Shown piece by piece: positions 30,587 through 59,016 of a stretch of 64,000 nt of DNA. The DNA is taken from NCBI GenBank assembly GCA_963795735.1, contig CAWCIU010000018.1, forward strand, positions 1,484,684-1,548,683, written 5' to 3'. The DNA comes from an uncultured Acidobacteriota bacterium. GTDB taxonomy: Bacteria; Acidobacteriota; Thermoanaerobaculia; Multivoradales; UBA5704. The notes under the pieces were generated by a model. It was not told the DNA's origin, ran no database searches, and saw nothing but the letters and a program-made list of their open reading frames with translations. The first letter of the stretch is position 1, and every line of letters starts with the position of its first letter. The position numbers were made by a program, and so were the translations under genes.

Positions 30587-32880
30587 TCAGCCCGGGTTCA
30601 GGATCACCGGGTTCAGGATCACCGGATTGACCGGACCGCCCGGCCCGACGACGACCGGATCCTGCACCAGCCAGAACCAGGCCTCGAAGTCGCCTCCCCG
30701 CCGGCCGTCGCCGCTGGGCAAGGAGAAACCCACCTCGGTCCTCCGCAGCCGGCCGAAGGCTTCGCCGTCGAGGAAGAGACTCGGATCCTCCGCGCTCCAG
30801 ATGAACCGCCCCTTGAGGACCACCTGTAACAGCAGACGGAAGCCGGGGGTCCGGTTGGGGTCCAGCCGCTGGAGCAGGACGCTCTGCAGCCACCGTCTGC
30901 ATAAAATCGTCGGAGCCCACTGCGCGCCGGTCTCAGCGAGGGTGACCGTTCCGTCCAGGAGGAGGGGCTGGAAACCGACGACGCCGGCAAAGTCCCCCAG
31001 GAGACCGCCGCCGATGCCCTGGGGGAAGGGCACGTGGAGGATGATCTGGAAGTTCGGCTTGGGGGGGAAGGGCGGCTGATTCTGCGTCGCGACGATCGGC
31101 GGGAAGCTGAAGACGTCGGCCAGCTTCCGGTCGGTGGTCACCAGCAGACCGTCGAGCAGCCGGCCAATGCCCACCAGGGAGTCGTTGTCCAGCGACTTCT
31201 TGTCCGCCAGAGCCGTGACTCCCCGCACCACAACCCCGGCATCCCTGTTGTGGCCGGCATTGAAATGGACCAACTGGCCAGGGAATGGATTGCCTGCAAC
31301 GTCCAGCGGTACGGCCTCGACGCGCTGGCGGGGGTCGGCCGCGTCGTCGCCGAGGGTCCAGAAGCAGGCGGCGAGACCCTCAGCGTCCGTGGTTACCACG
31401 AGCTCCGGGGCCAGGGCCGTGGCGGCGCGGTCCGAGCCCAGTTGCCCCTTCCCCTCCACGACCCGGAACATCACCTGGACCCCGGGCTGGGGCCAGCGGC
31501 CGTTGGATACACGCACCTCCAAGGGCTGGGGCAGCATCTCCCCGGAGCCGGCCTCCTGGCCGTCTCCTCCGACGTAACAGAGCTGGACCAGCTCGGTGAC
31601 CGCCGGGAAGACCGGCCGGCAGTCGTGGACATTGGAAAACTTCTTGGTGCCGGCATCGAAGTCTGCCACGGCCAGCTTGCAGAAGTGATGGGTCACGCCG
31701 TCGGGGGGCAGGGCCGCGGGTTTCCCGCCCTCCTGGGGCCATTCGATGTCCCCCGAGAATTCGCCGATGAAAGCGCGGGCGGGGATCAGCCAGTAGTCCC
31801 CCGCGCGGTAGGTGCCCGGCTCGAAGCGGATCTCGACGCCGTCCTCCAGCTTCAGCCAGCCGTCGTCGTCGGCCGCCAGGGCGACGGTAGCCTCCGGCGC
31901 GTTCCAGAGGCGAACCTTGGGGGTGCCCGGAAACTCCGCCGGATCGAGGGCCACGCCGAGCGTGAGGACGTTCCCCGCCACGTCCTGGAGCTGGGTCAAC
32001 GGGCCGGGCCTCCCCTGGATCTCGTGGAAGTCGTCGGTGACCTCTACCCACTGCCCGGTGGCGAAGCCCTGGACTTTGTCGCGGCCGGCGTCGGGCACGG
32101 TGAGCTTGGTGGGCTGGGACGGGTCGAGCCGCTGGCCGGCGGAGACCACCGAACCGTTGTCCCGCGACCACTTGAAGGTCGCCTTGCCCAGGGATCCCCC
32201 TGGTGGACCTCCACCCGGTAGAGCTGGTTCTCCAGGCGGGTGTAGCCGGCGCTGGCCGGCACGATGCACGTCTCCTGGGGCGGCTCGCCCGGATGGGTCC
32301 GCGCCCGCAGCCTGCCGGTGGGCGCCGCGATCGTGTCCTCCCAGGCCCGGGGGGCGGAAAGGCAGTGCGATCCGGCGTCCACCGCGATCAGCTTCACCTG
32401 CCAGAAGGTCTGGGTGCGGGTAGCCGTGTCGGGGCCGCCCAGGGCCGTCTCGCGGATGCCCGGGTCTTCCAGGGCGGTGACGTGCCGCCGCCAGGCGTCG
32501 ACGAAGGCGAAGTAGCTCCCGGTCGCGGCCGGCAGCGCCGGCTGGAGGCGGGCGTCAAGCGCGGGATCGAGCCCCGCGAGCTGCGCCGTGTAGGCGGCGT
32601 CCGCCGGACCCAGCTCGCAGAGGAGGCCGTCCACATAGAGCCGGCCGGCGGTGAAGGTGAGGTCGGTGGCATCGGGGTTGAGGCCCACCTCGAAGCCGCC
32701 ACCGGCGCGCGGCGCGCCGCAGGGGCCGATCAGGTCGCCCGCGGCCGTCTCGCGGAGATATGCGTCGATGTCGACCTGCTCGTTCCAGTCGGCGTCGAGC
32801 TGCACGCGCCCCTGCTGCTGGCGGACGCCGCTGTAACGCTTGGCGGGTTTGAAGGTCGATCGGGTGAAGTCGCCTTTCAT
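30587..32880 (-). CDS. eCIS DUF6519 protein with Ig-like C-terminal region (frameshift ~32205)
   Basis: MKGDFTR, QQGRVQLDADWNE, ENQLYRVEVH, FKWSRDNGSV, DYWLIPAR, GGDGQEA. Confidence 0.8.
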
Positions 32881-32893
32881 GATGGCTCCTCGT

Positions 32894-34875
32894 TCAGGTG
32901 GCAAAGAAGATTCCGGCCTCCAGGCCGACCCGCAGATACTCCTCGAGGCGGATGCGGAGGCCGTCCTCCCGCTGGGGCTGGCGCAGGCTGGAGAACGCGC
33001 CCATCTCGGACTCGTCCTCGGCGCCGCGCCGGATCTCCGGCGGAGTGTCGGTGGTCAACTGGCAGTAGCCCGGGTCGCCGTAGCGCAGCGAGGTGAACCG
33101 CGGGCGCAGCCGCGCCGCCGCCTCCAGCGTCTCGTCGGGAGGCTGGCAGTGATAGCGGCGGGGGGTATGGGAGCCCGGGGGCACGTGGCAGAAGCGCACG
33201 CACCCCTCCTGGCGGCGCCGGGAGGTGACCGGGTCCAGGAACAGGCTGTTCTCGGCCAGGGCGAGCCCGGTGGTGGAGACCGCGCCGAGCACCGTGCAGC
33301 GGGAAGTGGTGAGAGGACCGCCCGGCGACGTACCGTCGAGGGCGGCGTAAGCCGGATCGCTGACGCCGTCCACGATCGAGTCGCTCAGGCTGACCCGCGT
33401 CTCGGGATCGGTCCGCACCCCGCCCACGATCGAGCGCTCCAGGCTCACCTTGGCCGAGCCCGGCTCCACGATCAGGGCCGGCAGGCTTCCTCCCGGCGCC
33501 AGCGTCGCGTGCTGGAGCCGGACGCGGTCGGGCGAACCGGTGACCCGCAGGGTGCCGCCGGCGATCAGGAGACCGTTGATCTCGAAGCCGCTCTGCTCTC
33601 CACCGGAGATCGTTCAACTCTCCGGGAAGCAGGAGCGCCGCGCGCTGCTCGTCGGCGGCGCGGATCTCCAGGCGCCCTTGGGCCGGGATCGCCGGTACCG
33701 CCAGCGCCTCGGCGTAGGCGCGGCTGTCGAGGATCTCGATCACCGCCGAGCCCGCGCCGTTCCAACTGTCGAGAGCGGCCTGCAGGGTGGTCAAAGCCGC
33801 CGGGACCGGCATTCTCTCCGACCTGAAGATGGGCCTCTCCCGCGATCCGGGTGAAGGAAGCCTCGCGCTGGTAGGGGCCGCCCCCCAGGTCGTCGCTGAA
33901 GCCGTAGGCGTAGCTCACCCGCACCTTGGCCGGATCTTTGGCCGCCGGGAAGGACAGGCGTCCGAGCACGGGATCGACCGCCACCTTGCCGTCCGGGCGG
34001 GGGCGGTTCCAGTCGGTCAGATCGCAGGCGACGATCGTCCCCGCGGGCACGAGAGCGCCGTCGTCCCAGACCTCCAGGCTGGCGCCGTAGTAGCTGGAAA
34101 GGTCGGCATGGAAGGCCCGGCGCCGGATGGGGACCGGCACGTTCAGCTCCTCCGCGATCTGCGTGGCGGACGTCTCGGCGACCGGAGCGTGGAACAGCGG
34201 CCCGTCCAGACCGAGGACGTTGAAGGTGAAGCCCCGGCCGGTGCCGTCCGCCGGCTTCGGGGTAACCCGCTCCAGGGGATATGCCTGGAGCCGCCAGAGG
34301 AAGAGGCCGACGTTGGGGATGTCGTAGCGCCCCCGGCCCACAGCGATGCGGCGCACCTCGGCAGAGTGGGCCGCGGTCTCGAAGGGTCCCCCCAGCAACT
34401 CCAGGTCCCCCGTCCGGCGCAGGTCCGGCGTGCGCAGGTTGCCGGGGCGGACGTGGTTGACGTTCTGGGTGGTCTCCAATCGCTCGAAGTACTCCACCAC
34501 TCGGGCGGGCCAGCCGGTGACGTCGCGGGCCAGCCGTTCCAGCATGGCGGCGGTCCCCTTGGCCTGGCGGTAGCCCAGGGTGTTGGCCACCTCGGCCCGC
34601 CGGTTGCCGGCGCCGTTGGTGCCGCGCACCCCGATGAGGTCGCCGATGTAGGGCACCGCCCACGGCTCGCAGGTCTCGACGAACCAGTTCTCGTAGAGCT
34701 GGAAGATGTCGCGCTCGAGGAGGGTGGCCTGGGCGGCGAGGATCTCGACCAGGTCGCGCAAGGGGCCTTGCTGGAGGCCCTGCCGAGCGGCCTGCTCCGC
34801 GTCGCGCTGGCGGTGGACGGCGGGCAGGAGCCGGTATAGGCGATCAGTATCGTAGTTCTTGGTCAAATTGCTCAC
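32894..34875 (-). CDS. eCIS baseplate-associated tail protein (frameshifts ~33800, ~33590)
   Basis: RLYRLLPAVHRQRD, WFVETCEPWAVPYIGDLIG, RRAEVANT, KGT..LE.LARDVTGW; end GAEDESEMGAF..RLEEYL. Confidence 0.8.
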
Positions 34876-37679
34876 AGGATGGCCTCCGCAGCGACGGGAA
34901 CCGGCGAGAGGGTCAGGATCTGGGCGCGCAGCGCCCGGCCCGCGCCGTCGATGCGCGCCGGCAGCGCCGTCAGCCGGTCTTCCAGCGCTGGACTCTCGTC
35001 GTCGCGATACAGCAGGTCGACGTCCACATAGGTGACCCCCGCCACCCCCTGGGCGACCGCCATCACCGCGGAGAGGAAGACGCTCTGGCCGAAGTCGCGG
35101 GCCGCGAAGGAGAACACCTGCCGCAGCGCCGCCTCGACCCCGGCGAGCACGATCTCGCGGCCATAGTCCGGGTCCACCTTCACCTTCAGCCGGAGACGGA
35201 AGAGGAGATGCTCGTAGGTCTCCACCGCCAGCGCCTGGAAGGGGTCGCGCAGCCGGTCCAGGGCCTCGCGGAAGTTCCTGTCGAGGGCGGAGCCGGGGGT
35301 CACCGGCGCGCCGCCCACCCCGGCGACAGTGAGGTGGACGAGCCGGCGCCCGGCGGCCCATAGCATCCGCGCCTGCGCCTTGCCGATGCCGCTGAAGGAG
35401 CGGGCAAAGTCCTCGAAGTCGCGCAGCGAGACCACGCGGTCGAGGGTCAGCACGGTCATCGGGGCGTTCCGCCGGGCCTGGTCGCGCGCCTCGGGGTCGG
35501 CGGCGCCGGTGGCTGGCACCGGATTGGTCACGCTCTTCACCCCCAGAGGGCGGGTGGCAAGCAGCGAGATGCGCTCCTCCCCCACCAGGCCGGGCAGGCC
35601 GATGCCGGTGCGGTAGACGGCCTCCACGTTCTCCACCCCGCTGGGCAGCCGGGCGCCGTGGACGCCGTCGCCGAAGCGCACGGTGGTGTTGCCCTCGTCG
35701 TCGCGGCGCAGGGCATACCGCCGGTCGCGGGGGCCGAGCTGGTAGAGGTCGGGGGCCTCGTGCCAGAGCACGCCGTTGACCCGCACCTCCAGCGTGCTCT
35801 CGCCGCCCCCGGCCACCGGCGCCGGCACGTAGGTCAGCGGCTTCTGCCGCAGCCGGAAGCGCTGGAACCGCTTCGAGGCGTCGCCGGCTCCCAGCACCTC
35901 GCGCCGGGTCTCGCCGTGGGTGGCCGGGGCTACGTTGGCGAGCACCGAGACGGTGGTGCGGTCGAACAGGTTGGCCAGCGCGCCGGTGAGCTGGAGGGTG
36001 GTCCGCTCCTTGTCCGGCGTGATCTCGGCGAGGAAGGCGACCTCGGCCACGACCGGATCGTCCTTCTCGGCGGGGATCAGGGTCAGCGGCGGCCCCTCGG
36101 GCCGGAGGGGAGGAAGCTCGAAGCCTCCGCCCAGGACGATGACGGAAGGCGGCCGGAGATCCTCGGCTTCGACAAGGCGATGGCCGTCCGGCCGGCGACA
36201 GCCAGACGCCCGGCCGCTGCGAGCTCCAAAGGCCGGAAACGCTCCCGCTCCGGAGCGCTCTCCGCTTCCAGGGTGACGGTCCCCGCGAATCCGTCGCGGT
36301 CCCGCAGATGCCAGATCGTCGAAGACCCCTGGACGGACTGCGACAGCACTTCCAGCGTCTCCCCGACCTGGAGAGCGGACCTCGCCGGAGCCGTCCTCCG
36401 CCTTGAGCACCAGCTTCTCCCTATCCACCCGCGCCCGCATCCGCTGGCCCTGGACGATCACCGCCCGCCCCTGCACCAGGCCGCCGGCCAGGCCGTCCAG
36501 CACGATCGAATCGCCTTTCACCGGAGAGATCACGACCCTCTGGGCCAGCGCCAGCTCCTCGCTCTCGGCGAAGACGGCGGTCTCGCGCAGCTTGAACACC
36601 GCCGGGTCCACTCTTGGCTCCACTTCGAGATTGGTGACGCGGGCCGAAAGCGTGAAATCCGACCGGGAGAGGGTGTCCACGGAGGTCACTCGAACGAGTT
36701 GGAGACTGATGCCGATCTTCAGCACCACCCAGCTCTCCGGCGCGATCCGGGGATAGGCGGCGTCGAGGTCGATCGTCGCCGTGGATCCGGTGAGGGTGAA
36801 ACCCGGCCACTCCGTGAGCTTCAGATCCGGATCGCCGTACGCCTTCCGGATCGAGTCCGGCATTCCCTTCCAGGCGGGAGCGTTGGCGCCGAAGAGCGCG
36901 GCCCGCTGGCGCAGGGCGTAGACCCGGGGCGCCGGATCGGACGGGACGGTCAGCGCCCTTTCCCACGCCACCCGGGTGACGGCCGCAGCGCTGTCCGCCG
37001 CAACCTCCGTGAGGAGGCAGAAATCGAACTTCGTGGAGTCGCCGTCCGCCACGATCAGTAGGGCGTCGCCCGGCCGGAGCTGGGTGGCGACGCCGGCCAG
37101 GAAGAGCGACGTGCCTGCGATCGTCTGGTCTTCCAGCCGCTGCGGCCGCAGGGCGTTCCACTCCGGACGGGCGACGAGGTCGGCGCCGGTCTCGAAGCTC
37201 TGGGGAAGCTCGCTCTTGGTCGGCAAGCTCTGGGCGCGGGTTCCGGCGGGAACGGTCACCTGCCGCGGCGAGCCGGGCGAGCCGTCGAGGGTAAAGGCCA
37301 GCCAGGTGGAGGTCGCCACCCCGGGGCGCAGCTCGTAGCCGATGGTGCGCGCCAGCTCCAGCAGGCTCCGGCGCTCGGTGGCGGTACGCAGGAACCCCTC
37401 GTTGGCGATGCGCTCCTGGTAGAAGGAGAGCACGTCGAGCGTCACCGCCCAGGCGTCGAGGAGAGCGATCGCCGGGTCGTCGTCCGCCCGGGTGGTGAGG
37501 GCTTGCAAGGCCGATTTGGTGGAGATCTCCGCCAGCATCGCGCTCTTGAACCGGGAGTGGGTCCCCACCCGGTAGGCGAGGGCCGAGAGGCCGGGCCGGC
37601 TGGCGAGGTGGACCGGCGCGGGTCCACCCGTCCCCTGGCAGCAGCCGCACGAGCAGGGGGTCTGCGAATCGCCGCTCAC
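34872..37679 (-). CDS. eCIS baseplate J-like wedge protein 2
   Basis: N-terminal CSCGCC; DVLSFYQERIANEGFLRTA, FGDGVHGARLPSG, RVVSLRDFEDFAR; internal frame slip ~36150-36375. Confidence 0.85.
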   Translation of the reverse strand: MSGDSQTPCSCGCCQGTGGPAPVHLASRPGLSALAYRVGTHSRFKSAMLAEISTKSALQALTTRADDDPAIALLDAWAVTLDVLSFYQERIANEGFLRTATERRSLLELARTIGYELRPGVATSTWLAFTLDGSPGSPRQVTVPAGTRAQSLPTKSELPQSFETGADLVARPEWNALRPQRLEDQTIAGTSLFLAGVATQLRPGDALLIVADGDSTKFDFCLLTEVAADSAAAVTRVAWERALTVPSDPAPRVYALRQRAALFGANAPAWKGMPDSIRKAYGDPDLKLTEWPGFTLTGSTATIDLDAAYPRIAPESWVVLKIGISLQLVRVTSVDTLSRSDFTLSARVTNLEVEPRVDPAVFKLRETAVFAESEELALAQRVVISPVKGDSIVLDGLAGGLVQGRAVIVQGQRMRARVDREKLVLKAEDGSGEVRSPGRGDAGSAVAVRPGVFDDLASAGPRRIRGDRHPGSGERSGAGAFPAFGARSGRASGCRRPDGHRLVEAEDLRPPSVIVLGGGFELPPLRPEGPPLTLIPAEKDDPVVAEVAFLAEITPDKERTTLQLTGALANLFDRTTVSVLANVAPATHGETRREVLGAGDASKRFQRFRLRQKPLTYVPAPVAGGGESTLEVRVNGVLWHEAPDLYQLGPRDRRYALRRDDEGNTTVRFGDGVHGARLPSGVENVEAVYRTGIGLPGLVGEERISLLATRPLGVKSVTNPVPATGAADPEARDQARRNAPMTVLTLDRVVSLRDFEDFARSFSGIGKAQARMLWAAGRRLVHLTVAGVGGAPVTPGSALDRNFREALDRLRDPFQALAVETYEHLLFRLRLKVKVDPDYGREIVLAGVEAALRQVFSFAARDFGQSVFLSAVMAVAQGVAGVTYVDVDLLYRDDESPALEDRLTALPARIDGAGRALRAQILTLSPVPVAAEAIL

Positions 37680-41366: not shown

Positions 41367-42511
41367 GTCGGCACCACCGGAGTCAGGGATCCCCCGCCGT
41401 CGCGTTTGAGGTTGAACTGCTGCTTGTACTCGCCGATCTTCACCGTGTGGGTGACGCTCTTCACGTAATAGATGCCGTCGTGCTGATAGCCGACGCCGCG
41501 CAGCCCCACCAGCCCCCGCGGCTGGAGCAGCGCGCCGTAGGTCAGGGCGTTGAGCTCACCGGTGACGGTCACCGCGCCGTCCACCGAGGCGTCCGTCTGC
41601 CCCTGCGCCCGGCCATAGGACTGGGCCACGTTGAGGCCGCTCTGGCGGAACTGGCGGCGGCGCACGTTCGGCTGCTGCATCAGCCAGGCGGGCATGGCCG
41701 CCAGCGGCACGCGGGTGCTGGCGAGCGTCTTCACCGGCAGGGCCTGATTGGTCAACCGGTCCTGCACCTGGCCGTCCATCAAGACCGGCGCCTGGGAATT
41801 GCTGCTGAAGCTGATCTGATCCACGTTGGTCTCCGCCCCCAGGTTCACCGACAACGCCTTCTGCGGCACCGAGAGGCGCGGCGGCGGCCCCCAGTAGGCC
41901 GTGCTGGTCAGCGGCACCGGCCCCGGCGTGATGAAGAAGACGTAGCCGTACCTCTTGGCCATCTGCTGGAGATAGGCGTAGTCGGTGACCTGCTGCGACG
42001 GAATGCGATCGGTCGGCACCGGCGGATCGATCACCAGCGGCGGGATAACGGTGGGGATCAGCCCATACTGGGCATAAGAAATAATGATCTTGTTGGCGAT
42101 GATCGTCTCGTCCTGCGCCGGGTGCTCGGCCGACTTCTCCTCCTGGTCGAGCATCACGCTGGCGTCCTCGCCGATCACCGTCAGCGTGGAGGTGCCGGGG
42201 CTCCCGCCGGGCGACAGTTGCTGGTGGGTGATGAAGCCGTCCATCAGCACCTGCGGCACGATCCCGAAGGTGACCAGCAGCACGATCCGGTTGAGCGGCT
42301 TGAGCAGCAGCGGATTGCGCAGCACGCCATAATCGATCAGATCGAGCGGGCTCGACCGCCCCACCTTGAAGGTCAGCTCGAACCCCGAGATGCCGCTGTC
42401 GTCATGGGTCACCTTCACCTGCTGGAGCGACTCCATCAGGTCGGGCGGCGCCGGCACCGGCACGGTGGGGCCGATCAGCAGCGTCAAGTGGATTCCCAGC
42501 AGATTGATCAT
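41363..42511 (-). CDS. Baseplate hub protein (gp27 / late control D-like)
   Basis: LMDGFIT, GEDASV, TDYAYLQQMAKRYGY, YYVKSVTH; position in the operon. Confidence 0.75.
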   Translation of the reverse strand: MINLLGIHLTLLIGPTVPVPAPPDLMESLQQVKVTHDDSGISGFELTFKVGRSSPLDLIDYGVLRNPLLLKPLNRIVLLVTFGIVPQVLMDGFITHQQLSPGGSPGTSTLTVIGEDASVMLDQEEKSAEHPAQDETIIANKIIISYAQYGLIPTVIPPLVIDPPVPTDRIPSQQVTDYAYLQQMAKRYGYVFFITPGPVPLTSTAYWGPPPRLSVPQKALSVNLGAETNVDQISFSSNSQAPVLMDGQVQDRLTNQALPVKTLASTRVPLAAMPAWLMQQPNVRRRQFRQSGLNVAQSYGRAQGQTDASVDGAVTVTGELNALTYGALLQPRGLVGLRGVGYQHDGIYYVKSVTHTVKIGEYKQQFNLKRDGGGSLTPVVPT

Positions 42512-42527
42512 CGCGCGCCTTCCACAG

Positions 42528-42863
42528 TCACCCTTCCGGCTCCGGCTCAGCTCCGGGAATCGCCGTGACCCCCTCGGCCTGCGGCAGCCCCACGCGCAGG
42601 CGGCTCCCCGGCTGGGCGGTGAGATCCGCGGGGTCCATCGCGTTGTTGGCGTCCGCCACGCGCCAGAACTGCTCGGGGTCCGAGAGCAGGCGCGAGGTGA
42701 TCAGATCGAGCCGGTCTCCTTCGATCACCGTCACCTCGGCCAGCAGCGGCATCAGCTCGCCGCGCGGCAGGAAGCGCCGCCGCTTGTAGGCGAGTTGCCG
42801 GCCGTCGGAAGTCGCCAGCACCGCCGTCTCCAGGTTGTAATAGCGGCTGTTGGGATCGAACAT
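42528..42863 (-). CDS. LysM / tail-X-like eCIS protein
   Basis: SRYY, EGDRLDLI, DPEQFWRVADAN. Confidence 0.82.
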   Translation of the reverse strand: MFDPNSRYYNLETAVLATSDGRQLAYKRRRFLPRGELMPLLAEVTVIEGDRLDLITSRLLSDPEQFWRVADANNAMDPADLTAQPGSRLRVGLPQAEGVTAIPGAEPEPEG

Positions 42864-42866
42864 GGA

Positions 42867-43532
42867 TCAGCCCCCCACCTTGACGTCGAAGCTCATCGAG
42901 CCCTGCCCCGCACCGGCGTTGAGGCTGCCGACCACGGCCATCGCTTCCTTGACCACCTGATGGGCGAGAAAGATGTGATACCCCGGATGCAGGATCGAGA
43001 GGTCGTTGTAGGAGAGCACGCGCAGGCCGAGCGCGACCTTGGCGCGGATGGGATTGAGGTTCACGTCGAACGCCTCCTCGGTGATGCTGAAGTCGCTGAC
43101 CCGCACCGGCAGCACCCGCTTCGGTCCCCACACGAACAGCGTGAACGGGGCTACCGGCGGCACCACCTCGATCGTCCCCAGCGCCATCAGCACCGTGTTG
43201 GCGATCACCACCGCGCTCTTCGGATAGATCAGCATCTCGAGCGCCGAGAGCTGCGGATAGATCCCCAGGCTGGTGGCGACGCCGTTCCCCGTCTCGAGCT
43301 GATCGGTGGCGTCGATCTCGATGTCGAGAGAAATGGTTTCGATCGGCGCCCCCTTGAGCCGCATCGCCTCCGTCCTGTCCCCCTCCCCACCGCCGAGCGT
43401 CTGCGCCTGGAGCTTGCGCGTCATCGTCTCCGGGTTGTACTGGAAGACGGTGACGCTGGCGAGCGGATTGAACAGGTCGATGCCCACGATGGCGCCTTTC
43501 ATCAGGCGGGGGGAGTTGGGGAAGGAGGTCAT
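42867..43532 (-). CDS. eCIS tube-initiator-like protein
   Basis: FQYNPET, LFVWG, SITEEAFDVNLNPIRAKV. Confidence 0.75.
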   Translation of the reverse strand: MTSFPNSPRLMKGAIVGIDLFNPLASVTVFQYNPETMTRKLQAQTLGGGEGDRTEAMRLKGAPIETISLDIEIDATDQLETGNGVATSLGIYPQLSALEMLIYPKSAVVIANTVLMALGTIEVVPPVAPFTLFVWGPKRVLPVRVSDFSITEEAFDVNLNPIRAKVALGLRVLSYNDLSILHPGYHIFLAHQVVKEAMAVVGSLNAGAGQGSMSFDVKVGG

Positions 43533-43906
43533 GCAACACCCGTTCTTTCTTCGCGGAGATACTCATCTCGCTCCAGAAAATGCCCTTCCGACACTCGAGC
43601 CACTCCCTGACGTAGCAGCACAACCGCGAGGTCCTGCCATACTTCACCGGATTTGTCCTGCCATCCGTGAAGGAAAATTTGAACGCGTTCGCCATCTCCC
43701 GAGGCTTGGGGCCGGAGGAGGCAGTGCAGGGGACGTGCCAAATGGGCAGTTCTTTTCGTCATGATTTCTATATAGAGATCTGGCGGCGGCTGGAGGACCT
43801 CAATTCCATGGATTTTCATCTTCCACTCACCCGCGGGGCCATGGAGGATTGGCGTCCCATCCGGCTCCAAGCCAACCAGTGTGCATTCTTTTCCTTCCTT
43901 CTCCAC
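43529..43906 (-). CDS. Small hypothetical protein, degenerate SNase-like; possible immunity or partner protein
   Basis: GGAGGAGG RBS; stop overlaps the next start; lower GC; KIHGIE and VLLRQGVARV resemble thermonuclease motifs. Confidence 0.6.
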   Translation of the reverse strand: MEKEGKECTLVGLEPDGTPILHGPAGEWKMKIHGIEVLQPPPDLYIEIMTKRTAHLARPLHCLLRPQASGDGERVQIFLHGWQDKSGEVWQDLAVVLLRQGVARVSEGHFLERDEYLREERTGVA

Positions 43907-43918
43907 CGCATCCTCCTC

Positions 43919-45577
43919 CTACAGGCTGATCTCGACCCGCCGGTCCCTGAAGAATTCCGAAGGCCCGGACGAGATTAGGTGGCTTTCCCCCGACGAGGTC
44001 ACAGAACGGATCTGAGCCGCAGGAACTCCTTGCCTGCGGAGCTCCCGCGCGACCGCCTCCGCTCGCGACTGGCCCAGGGTTAAGTTGGACGGCTCGCTGC
44101 CGATCGGATCGGTGTTCCCATTGATCGTCACTGAATTGCCGCTGGAGATCAGGAACAACGAGATCACTGTAAGCTTGTCCACGATGTCTGGTCGCAGGGC
44201 GCTCGAACCAAAGTCGAACTGAACCTGAGCCGGGAGCAACGCCGCCTGGAGACTCGGGGGGATGAACTGCCCGATCACTCTGGTAGAGCAATCCGACATG
44301 CCAGATTGACGGGCTGCTGCTGTCGGCAGGGCACAAGCCGTCGTACGGCAGCTCTCATAGGCTGTCATCGCCGCCGGATTGCCCCGCAGGATCTCGTTGA
44401 CGAAAGTCAAAGTCGGCCGGCCAACCCCGGTAGTCTGGATCGTACGGCGGAGGATCTGTACGATCATCTGCTGCGCAGTGCTGTTGATGTCGATGAACTC
44501 TCCACAAGGGTTGCTCGCGCCGGGGCCGAGAGACTGCATCAAGCTGGCTTCCCGGGGTGTTCCAGCGACGCTGCTGCGCGAAGGAGGATGAGTCGTCGCG
44601 GCGCCTCCCAGAGGAGCTGGGGGCGAACCGGCGGCAACGCAGTCCGGCGCGAGATCGTCGACCGCGTGGATGAATTCGTGAACCAGTGTGTCAGCCAACT
44701 CAGCGGGATTCGATACGTGCTCGGGTTTGGTTGGGTTGATCTCCAGCTGGCGCGCCATCGGCGAGTAACCGCCGAAACGCTCGACTCCACCAATTCTCAA
44801 ACCAGGAGTGACGGCCAGGGCTAGAGGCCCCAGGTCCTGGGCGGGCATGGCCGCGCAGGAGGCCATGTAGCTCCAAAGCCCAAGAAAGGACGCGTCCCCG
44901 AACACGTTGTCGAGGGTCAGCGTCTGCTCTGGAGTGGAACCGAGCTGCCGCCGGAACTGAGCCGGCGTGAGGCGCATAAGCGAAGGCACGGAGCTACTCA
45001 GGACAGCGGAGGTTCCTCCCCTACCCTCCACGACCGCCGCGGATAGATGATCGGCCTCCCGCTCCGCGGCCTCTCCTCCGCCGAGCTCGATCTCTCCTTC
45101 TCCCTTGACGCCTCCAGTAGCATTCCGTTGCTGGATGACGTGGGTCAGCTCATGACTGAGGATCCGCCGGCCTTCGTTCCTTTCGGGCGCATATTGGCCG
45201 GCGCCGAAGACGACATCCGACCCCACCGTGTAGGCCAGCGCGCCCACAGCGGCCGCCGATTCGGCAGCCCGGCCGTCTGTGTGTACGCGCACCTGGCTGA
45301 AGTCGTGCCCGAACCGGGACTCCATGAAAGAGCGGGTTTTCCCGTCCAGTGGCCGTCCCGGCGAGCTCAGGGCTTCACCAACGATCGGCGGAACGCTGAC
45401 TGGATCGCCTCCGCTCGCGGCTTTCCGTTGCACGGTTCGCCGCTTCTTCTGGCACTCGGCGCATTCGCCGCTCGGACCGGCCGAGCCGCCGCAGGCGCAC
45501 TTGCGCTGCAACAGGCCGCTCGCACCCGGACTGACGGTCGGAAGAGCAGCCTTTTGGGTTTTCGGCTCGGCCTTCAT
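43919..45577 (-). CDS. DUF4157 eCIS effector candidate with central HExxH domain and C-terminal OmpA-like domain
   Basis: LQRKCACGG..CAEC; DUF4157 RFGHDFSQVRVH..HELTHVIQQ, EREAD; HEFIH; FDFGSS..NTDPIG..NLTLGQSRAEAV..RRVEI. Confidence 0.88.
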   Translation of the reverse strand: MKAEPKTQKAALPTVSPGASGLLQRKCACGGSAGPSGECAECQKKRRTVQRKAASGGDPVSVPPIVGEALSSPGRPLDGKTRSFMESRFGHDFSQVRVHTDGRAAESAAAVGALAYTVGSDVVFGAGQYAPERNEGRRILSHELTHVIQQRNATGGVKGEGEIELGGGEAAEREADHLSAAVVEGRGGTSAVLSSSVPSLMRLTPAQFRRQLGSTPEQTLTLDNVFGDASFLGLWSYMASCAAMPAQDLGPLALAVTPGLRIGGVERFGGYSPMARQLEINPTKPEHVSNPAELADTLVHEFIHAVDDLAPDCVAAGSPPAPLGGAATTHPPSRSSVAGTPREASLMQSLGPGASNPCGEFIDINSTAQQMIVQILRRTIQTTGVGRPTLTFVNEILRGNPAAMTAYESCRTTACALPTAAARQSGMSDCSTRVIGQFIPPSLQAALLPAQVQFDFGSSALRPDIVDKLTVISLFLISSGNSVTINGNTDPIGSEPSNLTLGQSRAEAVARELRRQGVPAAQIRSVTSSGESHLISSGPSEFFRDRRVEISL

Positions 45578-45825
45578 CGCTTCATCCCTCCATACACCGC
45601 CCTCGCAACCTGCCGCCCCACAGCCTCCGGCCGCGCTCCCGGCCTGGCCTCGAAGCTGCCGCCGTCGAGGCGCGGCAGGTCCGCCCCTTGGGCCAGCCCC
45701 GCCGGCAGGCCTTGCTCGGTCAACAGGCGCGTCAGCTCGCTTTCGACGGCGGCGCCGATGCGGTGGCGGTCGGCCGGGCGGACGCCTTCGAGGACCAGCT
45801 CCTCGATGTGGAGGTCGATGTTCAT
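45574..45825 (-). CDS. Small eCIS-associated hypothetical protein
   Basis: [14 protein letters not shown]; start/stop overlaps with both neighbours. Confidence 0.75.
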   Translation of the reverse strand: MNIDLHIEELVLEGVRPADRHRIGAAVESELTRLLTEQGLPAGLAQGADLPRLDGGSFEARPGARPEAVGRQVARAVYGGMKR

Positions 45826-47786
45826 TCCGCCCACCCCCGCACCTCGGCGTCGGAGAGCGGACGCTCGATCTTGGCCAGCTCGCCGCGGGCGGCGCGCAAC
45901 AGGTGGGCCATGCGCACCGGCGAGTCCTCGTCCGCCGCCAGGAAGGCCGCGGCGAGGGCGATGTTGCGGATGTTGCCGCCGGTCACCGAAAGGCGGGCGA
46001 GCTTGCCGGCGTCCAGCGCTTCGGTCGGGGTCTGGGATGGGAAGGCGCGGCGCCAGATCTCGGCCCGCTGCGGAGCGTCCGGGAAGGGGAACTGGACGAT
46101 GAAGCGCAGCCGGCGCAGGAAGGCGGTGTCCAGCGCGTCCTTGAAGTTGGAGGTCAGGATGGCGAGCCCCCGGTAGGACTCCATCCGCTGGAGCAGGTAG
46201 CTGACCTCGATGTTGGCGTAGCGATCGTGGCTGTCCTTGACCTCGCTGCGCTTGCCGAACAGGGCGTCGGCCTCGTCGAAAAGGAGGATGGCGCCCCCCT
46301 CCTCGGCGGCGTCGAAGACCCGGCGGAGGTTCTTCTCGGTCTCGCCGATGTACTTGCTCACCACCGACGAGAGGTCGATCCGGTAGAGGTCGAGCCGCAG
46401 CTCCCCGGCGAGCACCTCGGCGGCCATGGTCTTGCCGGTGCCGCTGGGACCCGCGAAGAGGGCGCTGATCCCCAGCCCCCGGCTGCCGCGCGCGGCGAAT
46501 CCCCACTCCTCGTGCACCGTGCGCCGGCGGCGGACGTGGACGGCGATCTCCCGCAGCGTCTTGACCTGCGCCTCGGGGAGGACCAGGTCGTCCCAGGCCG
46601 CGGCGGGCTCGATGCGCTGGGCCAGACTCTCCAGGCGCGGCCGGCTCTGTGAGCGGCAGGCGTCCCAGAGGTCGGAACCCGCGTCCGCCCCTCGTCCCGC
46701 GGCTTGAGCGGCGGCGGAGCGGATGCCCGCGGCGCCGAGGCTGAACTGGGAGACGATGGCGTCGAGCTGGCCGTTGACCTCCGCCGCGGCGGGTCCCAGG
46801 GCCGAGCGCCAGAGGGCGCGCTGCTCGGCGGAGGACGGAACCTGGAGATCGAAGGCGAGGACCGGCCGCTGCCGCGCCGGCCGCCGCTCGCGCAGGGCGA
46901 CCAGCAGCGGCCCCCGCAACTCCTCCATGAGGCGAGCCACGGCGATCTCCCGCGTCGCGTCACCGGAATCCAGCTCGGCGGCGTCGAGGAAGAGGGCGCT
47001 TCCCGAGAGGACCGATTCGCGCTCCCAGAGCCGGATCAGCTCTTCGAGCTCCGTCGGCGCCGTGGGGACGGCCGCCGCGGGGAGCGCGTGCAGGTTGAGC
47101 CCCAGATGGGCGCAGACGGCGAGCGCGAGGGCCCGCGGCCCCGCCGCATCTCCCCGGCCACCACTGCACAACTGGACGGCGGGCAGGGCGTTCCGGCCGG
47201 CGGCCTCGGACCAGGCCGCCGCGATCCGGTGGGCCAGGTCCTGCTGCGAGGGCACCAGCTCTGTCCCACCCATCAGCGGCTTGACCAGCCCGGAGAGCCG
47301 GTCATCCACCGTCTCCACCCCGGCCAGGAAGTGGAGCACGCGCTCGTCGATCCGCAGCGGGCTGGTGGTGAGCCCGTCGCCGGTGCCAACCTCGATCAGG
47401 CGCCAGTGGCGCAGCGGCGCTCCCGGGGTCAGGGCGCTCCAGTGCGGCTCGGGGAGGGCCGCCAGGGCGAGGCTGAAGGTCGGCTGGCGGCGGCCGCTTT
47501 CCCCTTGGGCGGCGGCGCAGCGGGCGGCGAATCCCGAGTCCAGCTCGACGCCCGCGCAGAGCAGCAGGACGTCGCGCTCGAAGGCGGAGAGGCCGAACCG
47601 CTCGCGCACCACCTCCAGGGCCGGCGGCGACGCCATGGCCGCGGCCGCATCCTCCAGCGCCTTCGCCACCTCCGGCCCGGGCTCTGGACCTCCGGCGTGC
47701 CGGTCCAGCGCGCCGCGCACCACGGCCAGCGCCGCCAGGAGATGGCGCTGGTTGGCTTCCCGCCAGCCCATGGCTTCCTCGCTCAT
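45822..47786 (-). CDS. eCIS AAA+ ATPase (Afp15/Pvc15-like)
   Basis: [46 protein letters not shown]. Confidence 0.94.
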
Positions 47787-51114: not shown

Positions 51115-52629
51115 CTAGGCCTGGACCTGGCCGGCGAGCTGCTGGATCTGGATCATCACGAACTCGGCGGGCTTGAGCGGCGCGAAGCCCACCACGATGT
51201 TGACGATGCCGCGGTTGATGTCGTCCTGCGTGGTGGTCTCCCGGTCGCACTTGACCAGGTAGGCCTCGCGCGGCGTCTTGCCCTGGAAGGCGCCCTGGCG
51301 GAACAGGCCCTGCATGAAGGCGCCGAGGTTGAGGCGGACCTGCGCCCACAGCGGCTCGTCGTTGGGCTCGAAGACCACCCACTGGGTGCCGCGGTAGAGG
51401 CTCTCCTCGAGATAGAGCGCCGTGCGGCGGACCGGGATGTATTTCCACTCGGAGGTCAGCCGGTCGTCCCCCTGGAGGGTGCGGGCGCCCCAGATGACCG
51501 GCCCCACGGCCGGACGGATGCGCAGGCAGTTGACCCCGAGCGGGTTGAGCTCGCCGTTTTCCGGATCGGTGAGCGGCACGCTCAGCCCCTGCACGCCGGC
51601 CAGCGTGGCATCGAGCCCCGCCGGCGCCTTCCAGATCCCGCGCTGGGCGTCGGTGCGGGCGAACACCCCCGCCACCGCGCCGCACGGCGCGAAGTCGCCC
51701 AACTGGTTGTCGCGCTGCGGATCGGTCTCCCGCAGACGGGGGAAGAAGAGCGCCGCGTTCTTGCTGACGGTGCCGACGCCCGCCGCGATGCCGGCCTTGG
51801 CCAGCTCCTTGGTCGTCCAGGCGCTCGGCGAATCGACCAGCAGCATGGCCCGGCGCGTCTCGCAGTAGGCCGCCGCCTGGGCGATCACGGAGGCGTCGAC
51901 GTCGCCGGTGCTCAGGTAGGGAGGGATGCAAAGCAGGTTGAAGAGGTCGGCCTTGTCCAGCGCGAAGAGCCCCTGCTTCGGCGTCGAGCTGAGGATGTCG
52001 GCGCTGACGAGCGGACCGCCGTCCGTGGCCTGCTGGGCGGCCGCGACCGTGCTCCAGGACGTCGCCGCGGGGATCGCGGCGGGCAGGGGAAGGACGGCCT
52101 GCACCAGGCTCGAGCCAGCGGCCAGCACCTTGTCAACCCGGCGGGGGCTGGCGGCATCCACCGCCACGTTGCGGAACACCTCGACCGGGCCCGCGCTGCC
52201 GATGCGGACGCTGAGGTTGAACAGGTGCGGGTCGGCGTTGGCCACGTTGTGGTCCACCATGGCCTGGAGCTGGTTCCCCCAACTCCCCGGGCTCGCCGCC
52301 TCCAGCTCCAGCGTGTCCACCGCGAGGCTGGCGTTGGTGATCGGCGCCGGCGGTCCGGCGGGGGCGCGGTACAGCCGCACGATGATCGCCTGGCTGCCGC
52401 CGTTGAGATAGAAGTCGCGGACCGCGTAGCTGAGGGCGCTGTCCGCCCACAGCCCGCCGAAGGTCCGCTCGAAGTCGCCGTAGCTGTTGATCGTGACCGG
52501 CTCGTTGACCGGTCCGCTCCGGGCGCGGCCCACGAAGGCGGTGATCGAGGTCGCGACGCCGGTGATCGTCCGCACTCCGCTGGGGATCTCCTCGACGTAG
52601 ACGCCCGGATAGGTTGGCTGGACTGGCAT
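51115..52629 (-). CDS. Contractile tail sheath protein
   Basis: YPGVYVEE, GIWKAPAG, WGARTL, YIPVRR, VVFEPND, KPAEFV. Confidence 0.96.
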   Translation of the reverse strand: MPVQPTYPGVYVEEIPSGVRTITGVATSITAFVGRARSGPVNEPVTINSYGDFERTFGGLWADSALSYAVRDFYLNGGSQAIIVRLYRAPAGPPAPITNASLAVDTLELEAASPGSWGNQLQAMVDHNVANADPHLFNLSVRIGSAGPVEVFRNVAVDAASPRRVDKVLAAGSSLVQAVLPLPAAIPAATSWSTVAAAQQATDGGPLVSADILSSTPKQGLFALDKADLFNLLCIPPYLSTGDVDASVIAQAAAYCETRRAMLLVDSPSAWTTKELAKAGIAAGVGTVSKNAALFFPRLRETDPQRDNQLGDFAPCGAVAGVFARTDAQRGIWKAPAGLDATLAGVQGLSVPLTDPENGELNPLGVNCLRIRPAVGPVIWGARTLQGDDRLTSEWKYIPVRRTALYLEESLYRGTQWVVFEPNDEPLWAQVRLNLGAFMQGLFRQGAFQGKTPREAYLVKCDRETTTQDDINRGIVNIVVGFAPLKPAEFVMIQIQQLAGQVQA

Positions 52630-56975: not shown

Positions 56976-57131
56976 GGGGCTTGAGCATCGAGCGGCGTTC
57001 CTCTGGCGTGTGGTAAACTTTTTCAAATAGCTGTTGTCTAAACCTTTTTCATGAGGCGGTCTAACGCCCCTGGGCGTGGAGGCGTAGTGCCGCCTGCCAG
57101 CGGGGCGCGGCCGCGCTCCCGGAGGTCACGC

Positions 57132-59016
57132 ATGATCGACGGTCGCCGTACCCTATGCCACTGCTTTCTCCCGCTGGCTGTTTCAGGGCTCCTTCTCGCC
57201 GCCGCTCCCGGCTTCGCGGCATCGCGGCACCAGCCCCCGCGACGTTCGACTCCGCAGACGTCGGAGGCCGGCACTCCGGACCCCTCCTCACCGACAGGAA
57301 CGGCCATACTCCGTGCACCCTTCGGAAAAGAGCGTCCGGTGACCTATCACGTCGTCCGCGGCCATGCCATCTTCCAGGGCGACATCGACCTCGGCCCCGT
57401 GGACGCCAAGGGTAACCTGCTGCCACGGCCATCCCGCCGTCCCCCTATCGTCACTGCGGTGGGGATCACCGACCCGGACCTCGTCTGGCCCGGCTGCGTC
57501 GTACCCTGGGAGTTCGACAGCGTGCCCGCGCCCCTGCAGGCGACCATCAGGACGGCCTTGAACACTTGGCAGACCCTGAGCCCCTGCACCTTCCCGGCGC
57601 ACACCACAGAGGCGGACTATCTGGTCTTCCGCATCAATACGGACAAGAGCGGTGCGAGCTCCTCAGCGATCGGACGTTGCGGCGGCGGGCAGGAGGTCAG
57701 CATCAACCAGGGGGTGATGAACCCCTTCACCGTCGTCCACGAGATCGGGCACGCCCTCGGGCTCTTTCATGAGCATACCCGGCACGACCGCAATCTCTTC
57801 GTCACCGTCAACACCGCGAACATCCTGAGCGGCTTCGAGCACGACTTCGAGATCGACAAGGACTCGCAAGACATCGGCCTCTACAATTTCAACTCGGTGA
57901 TGCACTATCCTCCGACCGCTTTCGTCAAGCCCGGGGCGGGTCCTACCCTGACGCCGAACGTGGCCGGCGTCACCTTCGGCCAGCGCCGGTTCCTGGACCC
58001 GGGAGACGTGAGCGGCGCGCTCGAGGTCCAGGGGATTAGCGTGGGGTGGACGGTCTTCCAGCCGCAGAACGGCCCCGCTTCTGTCTCCTCGCCCTCGATC
58101 GGCCCCAACCAGGAGGAGATCTATTACCAGCCGAGGAAGAGCGGCGGACGGGATTTCGGCCTGCTCTGCCGCCGGCATGGTTTCGGAGCCCCTCTCCCGC
58201 CCGACTGCATGGCGGCTTTGCCGCCCGAGCCGCTGAGCGGCATCCCGTCGGCGTCCTTTACCCCCTTTGCCAAGACCGAGAACCTCGATCTTCGTGCGCG
58301 GCGCCGATACCGGTCCTTATTTGCACTTCCGCCGCGACTACCCGACGGACGCGGCGGGCGGCGTCTTCCATCTCGAACCGGCGCCAGCCGGGACCGACTG
58401 GCTGTCGAGCCCGGCCGCGCTGACCCTCGACTCGCGCATCCTCGTCTTCGGCGTCCGCGGCCGCGTCGACCATCCTGGGGAAACCGCGCTCCACATGGTC
58501 TTCAAGGACTATGGCGACGGCACCAACCCCCATCCCTGGTCAGCGCCGGTCGAGCTCCTCTTGCCTGGCGGTGCCGTTCCAGCTTTTGAGCCGGCGGTGG
58601 TTTCGACGCGGCCGGGAAGCTGGACTCTTTTCACCTTCGACCTGAAGGGTAATCTCTGGGGGGCCGAAGGGGACCCGGACGGAAGGATCGTCACTCCTTG
58701 GGCGCTGGTTTCGTCTCTACGCCTGGCCGGCAGCGGGCCGCGGTCCGGTCCGGCGGTGGCGATCACCCGTGTGCCCGGCGAGGACTTCCTGCTCCTCGCC
58801 GACGGCCCGGCCGGGCATCTCGTCTACTCCGGAGTCGACAAGCGGCTGCGCGCCACCGATCCCTGGCGCGACGTCGGCGGCCTGCTCACCGGCCGCCCCG
58901 CCGCTACCACCTACTCGAGCGGCACGCTGGTCGGCATCCTCGCCAACGTCCAAAGCCAGTTCCTCTGGTTCAGGGAATGGGATCCCTCGTCGCACGTGGT
59001 CAAGGGCGGTTTCTAA
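57132..59016 (+). CDS. Secreted astacin (M12A) metalloprotease with C-terminal beta-repeat domain (frameshift ~58150-58190)
   Basis: GGAGG RBS, signal peptide, FQGDI propeptide, HEIGHALGLFHEHTRHDR, Met-turn SVMHY. Confidence 0.87.

Follow-up and report, generated by a model that had tools for sequence, protein, structure and literature searches.

DUF4157 is an established core component and cargo marker of extracellular contractile injection systems (eCIS) (PMC8213781, PMC11297309). Among 1130 eCIS toxins predicted by Danov et al. (2024; PMC11297309), 983 are reported to have DUF4157 as their sole nameable feature, and 68 predicted toxins are reported with a peptidoglycan-binding domain (PMC11297309). 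Two cargo proteins of AlgoCIS, Cgo1 and Cgo2, consist of an N-terminal domain (NTD), a DUF4157 and a domain at the C-terminus (CTD) and fill the lumen of the tube (PMC8894135, 10.64898/2026.05.27.728243); their loading is reported to require the NTD and not DUF4157 (10.64898/2026.05.27.728243), for which autoproteolytic release has been proposed by Zhang et al. (PMC3482391). The same authors (Zhang, de Souza, Anantharaman, Iyer and Aravind, 2012; PMC3482391) described the Tox-OmpA class, which is linked to Photorhabdus virulence cassette (PVC)/eCIS loci and combines an N-terminal PVC-metallopeptidase domain (DUF4157) with an OmpA domain at the extreme C-terminus. Here, we analyse a gene of similar layout, located at positions 43919 to 45577 of a 64,000-nucleotide stretch of DNA from an uncultured Acidobacteriota bacterium (contig CAWCIU010000018.1), which is referred to below as the window.

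The gene is an ATG-started open reading frame (ORF) of 552 aa on the minus strand and occupies the cargo slot of an eCIS operon, between an AAA ATPase gene and the CIS_tube and baseplate genes, in agreement with the cargo role assigned to it in a preliminary description of this DNA. Three of its features seem to be undescribed: a zincin-like domain between DUF4157 and the OmpA-like domain that is the constant core of a protein family, the exact limits of the cassette in which this domain was exchanged, and a co-travelling downstream gene for a partner with a predicted staphylococcal nuclease (SNase) fold. A literature search on DUF4157 with OmpA returned, among the matches listed, no description of the middle domain or of its pairing with such a partner. 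The parts of the gene, the cassette and the partner gene are as follows.

43919..45577, minus strand: gene of the 552-aa protein, with leader, DUF4157, linker, zincin-like middle domain and OmpA-like domain (ORF and translation; Pfam PF13699, PF00691)
45353..45577, minus strand: N-terminal leader, aa 1-75, probable eCIS loading signal (CxC...CxxC motif at aa 27-42)
45119..45352, minus strand: DUF4157/eCIS_core, aa 76-153 (PF13699; HELTH at aa 142)
44243..44995, minus strand: middle domain, aa 195-445, 251 aa, unnamed and probably zincin-like (HEFIH at aa 300, NPTKPEH motif, six conserved Cys)
43922..44242, minus strand: OmpA-like domain, predicted to bind peptidoglycan, aa 446-552 (PF00691 match at aa 454-537)
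43534..45128, no strand: swapped cassette (blastn of window 42000-47000 against L039 and L048; no similarity to the closest relative, G016)
43529..43906, minus strand: partner gene, 125 aa, GTG start 12 nt past the stop of the 552-aa gene; predicted SNase-like fold, candidate immunity protein or chaperone

DUF4157 was recognised over profile positions 1–78 of 79 of PF13699 eCIS_core (E = 1e-32, 112.5 bits against a cut-off of 22), and the OmpA-like C-terminus matched PF00691 with an E-value of 1.6e-12 (48.1 bits against a cut-off of 27.2). With PF13699 at aa 76–153 and PF00691 extending to aa 537 of 552, the protein has the Tox-OmpA layout. In the accessible part of the Tox-OmpA account, OmpA itself is the toxin, neither an intervening HExxH domain nor a downstream partner is mentioned and no immunity gene is listed for the class (PMC3482391), whereas in the present family a 251-aa zincin-like domain is the constant core, OmpA is optional and an SNase-fold gene co-travels. 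The Cys-rich leader, the DUF4157 with its HELTH motif and the C-terminal OmpA domain had all been pointed out in the preliminary description, and the motif positions and Pfam matches bear this out. It had also placed a domain of about 200 aa with several Cys in the middle of the protein; the domain is there, with HEFIH at aa 300 and six Cys, and measures 251 aa. Likewise, the linker does close with the residues LMR, which the alignment consensus assigns to the first conserved motif (MRLTP) of the middle domain. No hydrophobic stretch was seen at the N-terminus when judged by eye, in keeping with the reported lack of a signal peptide.

That the region is less GC-rich than its neighbours was also correct. 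The gene has a GC content of 0.641 and a GC content at third codon positions (GC3) of 0.731, compared with a genome mean GC of 0.690 and a GC3 of 0.86–0.95 in most flanking eCIS genes, and the GC3 of the 125-aa downstream gene is 0.548. The dip is real and moderate: the gene lies at the 11th percentile for GC among genome windows of equal length, and low GC3 was also found in two more eCIS genes, the tube gene (0.763) and that at 33565-35361 (0.738).

The window was compared by blastn with the closest relative, genome G016. Identity is 89% up to position 43533 and 84% from position 45129, with no similarity in between. The first breakpoint corresponds to the first base outside the CIS_tube gene and the second to approximately aa 150, just past the HExxH motif of DUF4157, and the cassette at 43534–45128 encodes all that follows DUF4157 together with the downstream 125-aa gene. 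The slot in G016 holds a 335-aa DUF4157 protein that resembles the 552-aa protein over aa 1–154 only, and no 125-aa gene. By these breakpoints and the lack of a 125-aa gene in G016, the transferred unit consists of the entire part past DUF4157 together with the gene that follows. Searches of 40 other genomes of the same genus (E up to 1e-6) and of 400 genomes sampled across the phylum (E up to 1e-10) did not find the middle domain. A swap of the C-terminal part, which had been suspected from the sequence of the window alone, is upheld by the abrupt loss of similarity to G016 and by the absence of the domain from the same-genus genomes.

The exchange also bears on whether the protein could be structural, with an OmpA-like domain that anchors the particle or an assembly platform to the wall in the manner of TssL in the type VI secretion system. 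Sub-threshold NCBIfam matches of the C-terminus to the OmpA domains of TssL long form and DotU would fit such a tether. However, the cassette has no counterpart in G016, whose flanking structural genes are 80–91% identical to those of the window; moreover, the protein has no membrane segment, carries the cargo leader and DUF4157, and belongs to a family in which OmpA is optional. The preliminary description had offered a tether as its alternative; with a gene that is variable and missing from most relatives' loci, we consider it highly improbable.

The content of the slot was then compared among relatives. The ATPase is present in 23 of the 41 genomes sampled as relatives, and the region downstream of it was examined in 16 of these 23. 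Flanking baseplate genes are detectable and shared in 15 of these 16 regions; L044 shows cargo genes only and L054 has a different gene order. The slots hold between zero and six DUF4157 genes each, and none of the 16 contains the middle domain. PF13699 was detected in 25 of the 33 slot ORFs scanned, and the alternative C-termini that had been expected at this position do occur in same-genus slots: fusions to VanY plus an M14-like domain (2 genes), Aspzincin_M35 (3), OmpA (2) and YkuD (1). The CxC...CxxC leader motif is present in 18 of these 25 genes, the C-termini of which are unrelated, at approximately aa 25–35 or deeper in the sequence if the ORF tested had an upstream start. The Cys-rich leader is also kept in homologs of the 552-aa protein that lack DUF4157. 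By its sequence, the protein has the Cgo-type layout, with leader, DUF4157 and variable CTD encoded within the operon. Cgo1 itself is arranged as NTD, DUF4157 and a CTD with a second HExxH and is likewise encoded in its operon (Xu et al. 2022; PMC8894135). Its NTD is disordered and needed for loading, and the protein has been located in the tube lumen; Cgo1 differs from the 552-aa protein in its length of 498 aa and in that no OmpA domain is reported for it (PMC8894135). As a separate observation, the cargo arrays in L044, L046, L047, L048 and L053, all of the same genus or order, contain two to six DUF4157 genes each, many of them wall-enzyme fusions, and this lineage seems to specialise in envelope-active cargo.

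The abundance of cell-wall enzymes in the cargo slots of the genus would also be compatible with action on the producer, either as a wall-active factor for the lytic release of particles or through firing into the cell's own envelope by a cell-bound contractile injection system. It has been suggested that eCIS toxins may aid particle-releasing lysis (Geller et al., PMC8213781), and a cytoplasmic partner such as that of the window would suit protection before release. Yet the protein has no apparent signal peptide, no adjacent holin and a leader that is the same as in other cargo, and its absence from the eCIS loci of all 16 relatives examined indicates that it is not needed for release. An OmpA-bearing homolog on a contig of an archaeal metagenome-assembled genome (MAG) also argues against a role in the producer, which we regard as decidedly unlikely.

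The middle domain, in contrast to a one-off acquisition, proved to be the constant part of a family with a wide distribution. When the full protein was used as query, 2754 proteins were obtained at E ≤ 0.001 among 8000 scored candidates, with identities of 41–85% in the 120 matches listed. Among the 119 best homologs, some of which come from short contigs and are perhaps cut, the middle domain is present in 119, DUF4157 in 102 and OmpA in 58; 61 combine DUF4157 with the middle domain, 41 contain all three domains and 17 have the middle domain and OmpA without DUF4157. When the middle domain was searched alone, 85 cluster representatives were obtained at E ≤ 0.001 in 1.84 billion proteins. Judged by sequence, the middle domain is therefore the part held constant in a family that has no Pfam model. 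A pattern search, with one genome per species, identified 15 loci with a middle-domain relative in many phyla, including Chloroflexia, Bacteroidota, Alpha- and Gammaproteobacteria, Planctomycetota, Dormibacterota, cyanobacteria and a Methanoperedens MAG; Algoriphagus was not among these loci. In tblastn comparisons, a close homolog occupies the same slot in L005, L006 and L013 and a distant one in L016 and L018, and all five loci share the order ATPase, small ORF, one to four DUF4157 genes including the homolog, CIS_tube and baseplate, the homolog in most cases having further DUF4157 genes beside it. In L010, sheath and tube genes lie near the middle-domain homolog. Three distant relatives (P0127, P0130 and P0132) have lipoprotein-like N-terminal signals, as judged by eye.

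In an alignment of 120 sequences, H300, E301 and H304 are invariant throughout, as are the NPxKxEH motif and four Cys, and two more Cys are nearly so. An AlphaFold2 model of the middle domain, built from its own alignment, reached a predicted local distance difference test score (pLDDT) of 95.0 and a predicted template modelling score (pTM) of 0.92. Foldseek found no match to this model in the PDB at E ≤ 0.001 (best 0.34), and an exhaustive fold search with VIA gave a best Z-score of 5.8, with a root-mean-square deviation of 3.8–4.3 over 112–157 aligned residues, Z-scores below 8 being common between unrelated folds. The weak matches are mostly to zinc enzymes, namely a BoNT-like light chain, YbeY, SprT/Wss1, selecase, GtgA, lethal factor, NleC and VgrG2b (Z 4.2). 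Both weak lists are filled by zincins (M91/NleD-HopH1, SprT/Wss1, minigluzincins, M27 and M34), in which HExxH lies on a helix against a small sheet; unlike these named zincins, the middle domain stays below every family cut-off. For aa 195–445, no Pfam or NCBIfam family exceeded its cut-off, the best being M76 in Pfam (E = 0.17) and TIGR04267 (E = 0.031). In a Pfam scan of 14 chosen homologs, one protein, P0088, matched PF14891 (M91) within the middle domain with 25.1 bits against a cut-off of 25, and several others gave sub-threshold SprT-like or M76 matches at HExxH. We conclude from these weak but consistent fold matches that the middle domain is probably zincin-like, without assigning it to a named peptidase family, and together with the invariant HExxH they speak for the zincin-like character that had been proposed for it.

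Two further comparisons of the middle domain are noted for completeness. An ESM Atlas search with aa 195–445 gave a best score of 0.81, inside the range of shuffled proteins, and was left unused. The idea that the domain is a second, diverged DUF4157 was rejected as insufficiently supported: hhalign, applied to trimmed sub-alignments, gave a probability of only 26.6% over 46 columns around the HExxH helix.

A zincin-like fold is not the sole reading of these searches, and the domain might instead belong to a different class of HExxH enzyme, such as the alpha-ketoglutarate-dependent HExxH hydroxylases or the YbeY-like metal-dependent nucleases. The TIGR04267 mod_HExxH match falls on aa 286–305, and VIA scored YbeY with Z 5.8 and 5.6 and the ChlB HExxH oxygenase domain with Z 4.2. 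These matches, however, are as weak as those to peptidases and lie mainly over the HExxH helix; peptidases make up the majority of the matches in both fold searches, and the borderline Pfam matches of the homologs are to M91, SprT-like and M76 families. A non-peptidase enzyme accordingly seems to us quite improbable.

For aa 440–552, searches of NCBIfam and of PDB sequences returned solely OmpA-like matches, the best being Pal 4g4v (E = 2.2e-8). The TD...RA motif (NTD...RAEAV in the query) is matched in the alignments to Pal 4g4v and YiaD 2k1s. The Asp and Arg of this motif are important for peptidoglycan binding. Both residues are kept in the 552-aa protein, the OmpA-like domain of which is predicted to bind peptidoglycan. 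Such binding could in itself be harmful, in which case the OmpA-like domain or the whole protein would act by occupying peptidoglycan or its precursors and the HExxH of the middle domain would be dispensable. A non-catalytic action of this kind was proposed for toxins delivered by PVC in which OmpA forms the extreme C-terminus (Zhang et al. 2012, PMC3482391), and the toxicity of Cgo1 and SalCgo1 is reported to be independent of their HExxH motifs (PMC8894135, PMC13266070). In the present family, however, the domain that never fails among the 119 homologs is the middle one, OmpA being absent from 61; the invariance of HExxH in all 120 aligned sequences argues for selection on metal binding or catalysis, and the partner gene follows the middle domain also where OmpA is absent (L005, L013). 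We think a non-catalytic toxin unlikely.

The partner gene was examined at the loci of the pattern search. By tblastn, relatives of the partner lie directly downstream of the middle-domain gene in L004, L006, L007, L008, L009, L011 and L013. A hidden Markov model (HMM) of the partner family added L005, bringing the total to 8 of the 10 loci with a close homolog, which belong to phyla other than that of the window, and found none in L010 and L012; the seven tblastn loci had been fed into this HMM, so that L005 and the negatives alone are independent of its construction. The HMM gave no match at the five distant loci or in the 16 relatives' slots, and one only in the genome of the window. The family was built from the loci because a word-index search with the partner protein had yielded three relatives. 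This distribution indicates that the downstream partner is inherited together with the middle domain. Neither the partner nor the spread of the middle domain had been recognised in the preliminary description, the observations of which are confirmed and its interpretation in part.

The AlphaFold2 model of the partner (pLDDT 80) matched staphylococcal nuclease over its full length (Foldseek E = 1.2e-4, probability 1.00, query-normalised template modelling score (TMq) 0.64), and the top rows of its 139 Foldseek matches at E ≤ 0.001 were all staphylococcal nuclease. Weak matches to SNase (PF00565) were obtained for 3 of 11 members of the partner family (best E = 0.0016), and the window's own copy matched no Pfam family at E up to 1. 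A profile search did not connect the partner to solved SNases by sequence, and when two relatives were searched as single sequences, the matches were at chance level, to designed beta-trefoils, or there were none. The partner is thus modelled with the SNase-like oligonucleotide/oligosaccharide-binding (OB) fold, which it shares with SNase over its whole length in spite of the lack of a sequence-level match to a solved member. When the middle domain and the partner were modelled together from alignments made in this analysis, the complex scored 0.60, compared with 0.30 for the best control; the runs agreed in at least 74% of contacts, and the pLDDT of the partner was at least 82. The mark set for this score was reached by 58 of 80 solved complexes and by 2 of 110 mismatched pairs, and at scores of 0.60 or less 7 of the 80 solved complexes passed, as did both mismatches. 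The models therefore lend weak support to a complex of the middle domain with the partner. In the window, no N-terminal extension of the partner is possible, so that the protein would be cytoplasmic there. For two partner relatives, at L009:2019-2411 and L013:8547-9077, starts further upstream are possible and would extend the protein by a hydrophobic, signal-like N-terminus; if these starts are real, some partners may be exported, which would fit a periplasmic immunity role. A literature search found no work joining contractile injection, an immunity protein and staphylococcal nuclease.

Considering the anatomy of the gene, its position and its partner, we favour, with moderate confidence, the interpretation that the 552-aa protein is an effector loaded into the eCIS and active on the cell envelope and that its cognate partner is an immunity protein or a chaperone. 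The effector would be made with the operon, its start overlapping the stop of the upstream 84-aa ORF (ATGA). By analogy with AlgoCIS, its leader of about 75 aa, with the Cys motif common to cargo of the genus, would direct the protein into the lumen of the tube, assisted by the AAA ATPase, and DUF4157 would serve as an accessory module or in processing. Once the system has fired, the C-terminal part would act in the envelope of the target bacterium, where the OmpA-like domain would hold the protein on peptidoglycan and the zincin-like middle domain would cleave a substrate of the envelope, be it a protein or a peptide stem. In the producer, the 125-aa SNase-fold partner would neutralise or chaperone the enzyme. 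Action in the envelope of a bacterial target is suggested by the OmpA-like domain, the six conserved Cys, the lipoprotein-like N-termini of distant relatives, the wall enzymes in sister slots and the OmpA homolog on the archaeal MAG contig; the six Cys would fit an oxidising site and hence an extracytoplasmic one.

Two described effectors bear on such an activity, for which SalCgo2 sets a precedent. SalCgo2 (PMC13266070) and the C-terminal metallopeptidase of VgrG2b (PDB 6h56) are HExxH effectors of contractile injection for which HExxH-dependent periplasmic toxicity is reported, SalCgo2, an eCIS cargo, being toxic in the E. coli periplasm only and with an intact HExxH only (PMC13266070). Both are DUF4157/VgrG2b-like domains, whereas the middle domain compares with 6h56 at Z 4.2 and with the DUF4157 profile at the 26.6% hhalign probability given above. 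No immunity protein was found for SalCgo2 according to the accessible part of its description (PMC13266070).

Several points weigh against an envelope-active enzyme with a dedicated partner. The likeness of the middle domain to zincins is weak in both fold searches (Foldseek E 0.34, VIA Z 5.8), and no third metal ligand was identified in it. Cgo1 of AlgoCIS, with a second HExxH in its CTD, is reported to inhibit the growth of E. coli independently of either HExxH, and a periplasmic tag left this effect unchanged (PMC8894135). Wall docking must be optional for the family, as OmpA is missing from more than half of the homologs (61/119). The partner of the window, lacking a signal peptide, could not protect the periplasm of sister cells; it could be a nuclease itself, one relative bearing the JGI name 'endonuclease YncB (thermonuclease family)'; and the score of its predicted complex with the middle domain falls in a range in which passing scores are more commonly false than true, unless the pairing had been likely from the start. 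Finally, most eCIS toxins are reported to be without immunity genes (PMC8213781).

A more specific form of the envelope-effector interpretation is possible and, in our view, rather doubtful. The HExxH domain and its SNase-fold neighbour would constitute a widely transferred periplasmic eCIS effector–immunity (or effector–inhibitor) pair in which a nuclease fold was recruited as a protease binder, and the enzyme, held by OmpA in some versions, would cut a wall-tethering component of the envelope. If this were true, the partner would be among the few conserved partner genes known for eCIS toxins and would open a direct way to study how antibacterial eCIS cargo is dealt with by its producers; the absence of immunity genes beside antibacterial eCIS toxins has been called an 'intriguing mystery' (Geller et al., PMC8213781). 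The general class has been known since 2012, and the gain lies in a new family and a new pairing and not in a new principle. Since an effector domain that folds confidently in prediction and occurs in many phyla, a natural swap that marks the limits of the functional unit and a co-travelling partner are found together at one locus, the locus offers a convenient test case for asking whether envelope-active enzymes are delivered to bacteria by eCIS, what the OmpA module contributes and whether the partner is an inhibitor or a loading chaperone.

The operon that holds the gene encodes a complete eCIS, lies on one strand and is read from position 52629 down to approximately 30600. Its genes are, in order, those for the sheath, a gp19-like tube, a T4_baseplate-like protein, Pvc16_N, the AAA ATPase with a winged-helix domain and the 84-aa ORF, followed by the 552-aa protein, the 125-aa ORF, a CIS_tube-family gene and two unnamed genes, and finally a spike OB-domain gene, gp25, Baseplate_J and larger baseplate or distal genes. 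The slot is bordered by the following features.

45822..47786, minus strand: eCIS AAA+ ATPase with winged-helix domain, upstream border of the slot (PF00004, PF22977)
45574..45828, minus strand: conserved ORF of 84 aa, after the ATPase and ahead of the first cargo gene (tblastn homologs at the equivalent place)
42867..43532, minus strand: CIS_tube-family gene, downstream border of the slot (PF19266; 91% identical in G016)

Homologs of the 84-aa ORF were found by tblastn in the same position in L005, L006, L013, L016, L018 and the same-genus loci. It had no match in Pfam or NCBIfam, and it possibly represents a conserved part of this eCIS lineage that is so far undescribed. A DUF6519 match at the operon's distal end is split over two overlapping minus-strand ORFs within window positions 30587-32904, the ORF at 32044-32904 covering profile positions 1–178 and that at 30587-32269 positions 316–517; the split may reflect a frameshift, a sequencing error or two separate genes.

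Five DUF4157 genes, including a full-length OmpA homolog and its partner gene, lie at positions 2346-13847 of L004, the 39-kb contig of the Methanoperedens MAG. No eCIS structural gene was detected there by tblastn with the window proteins within 16.7 kb, and the contig is either a cargo island or a binning error. The Methanoperedens group is not known to have murein.

Upstream of the operon, at 57051-58589 on the plus strand of the window, an astacin (M12A) family protein adjoins a GDSL-like gene and a MacB/HlyD-type exporter. The genome of the window contains two further DUF4157 genes far from the locus, at C18:142879-146820 (plus strand) and C18:318268-318879 (minus strand). One of these is an RHS/YD-repeat-like frame of approximately 1314 aa with DUF4157 at its extreme C-terminus, and the other encodes a short, stand-alone protein.

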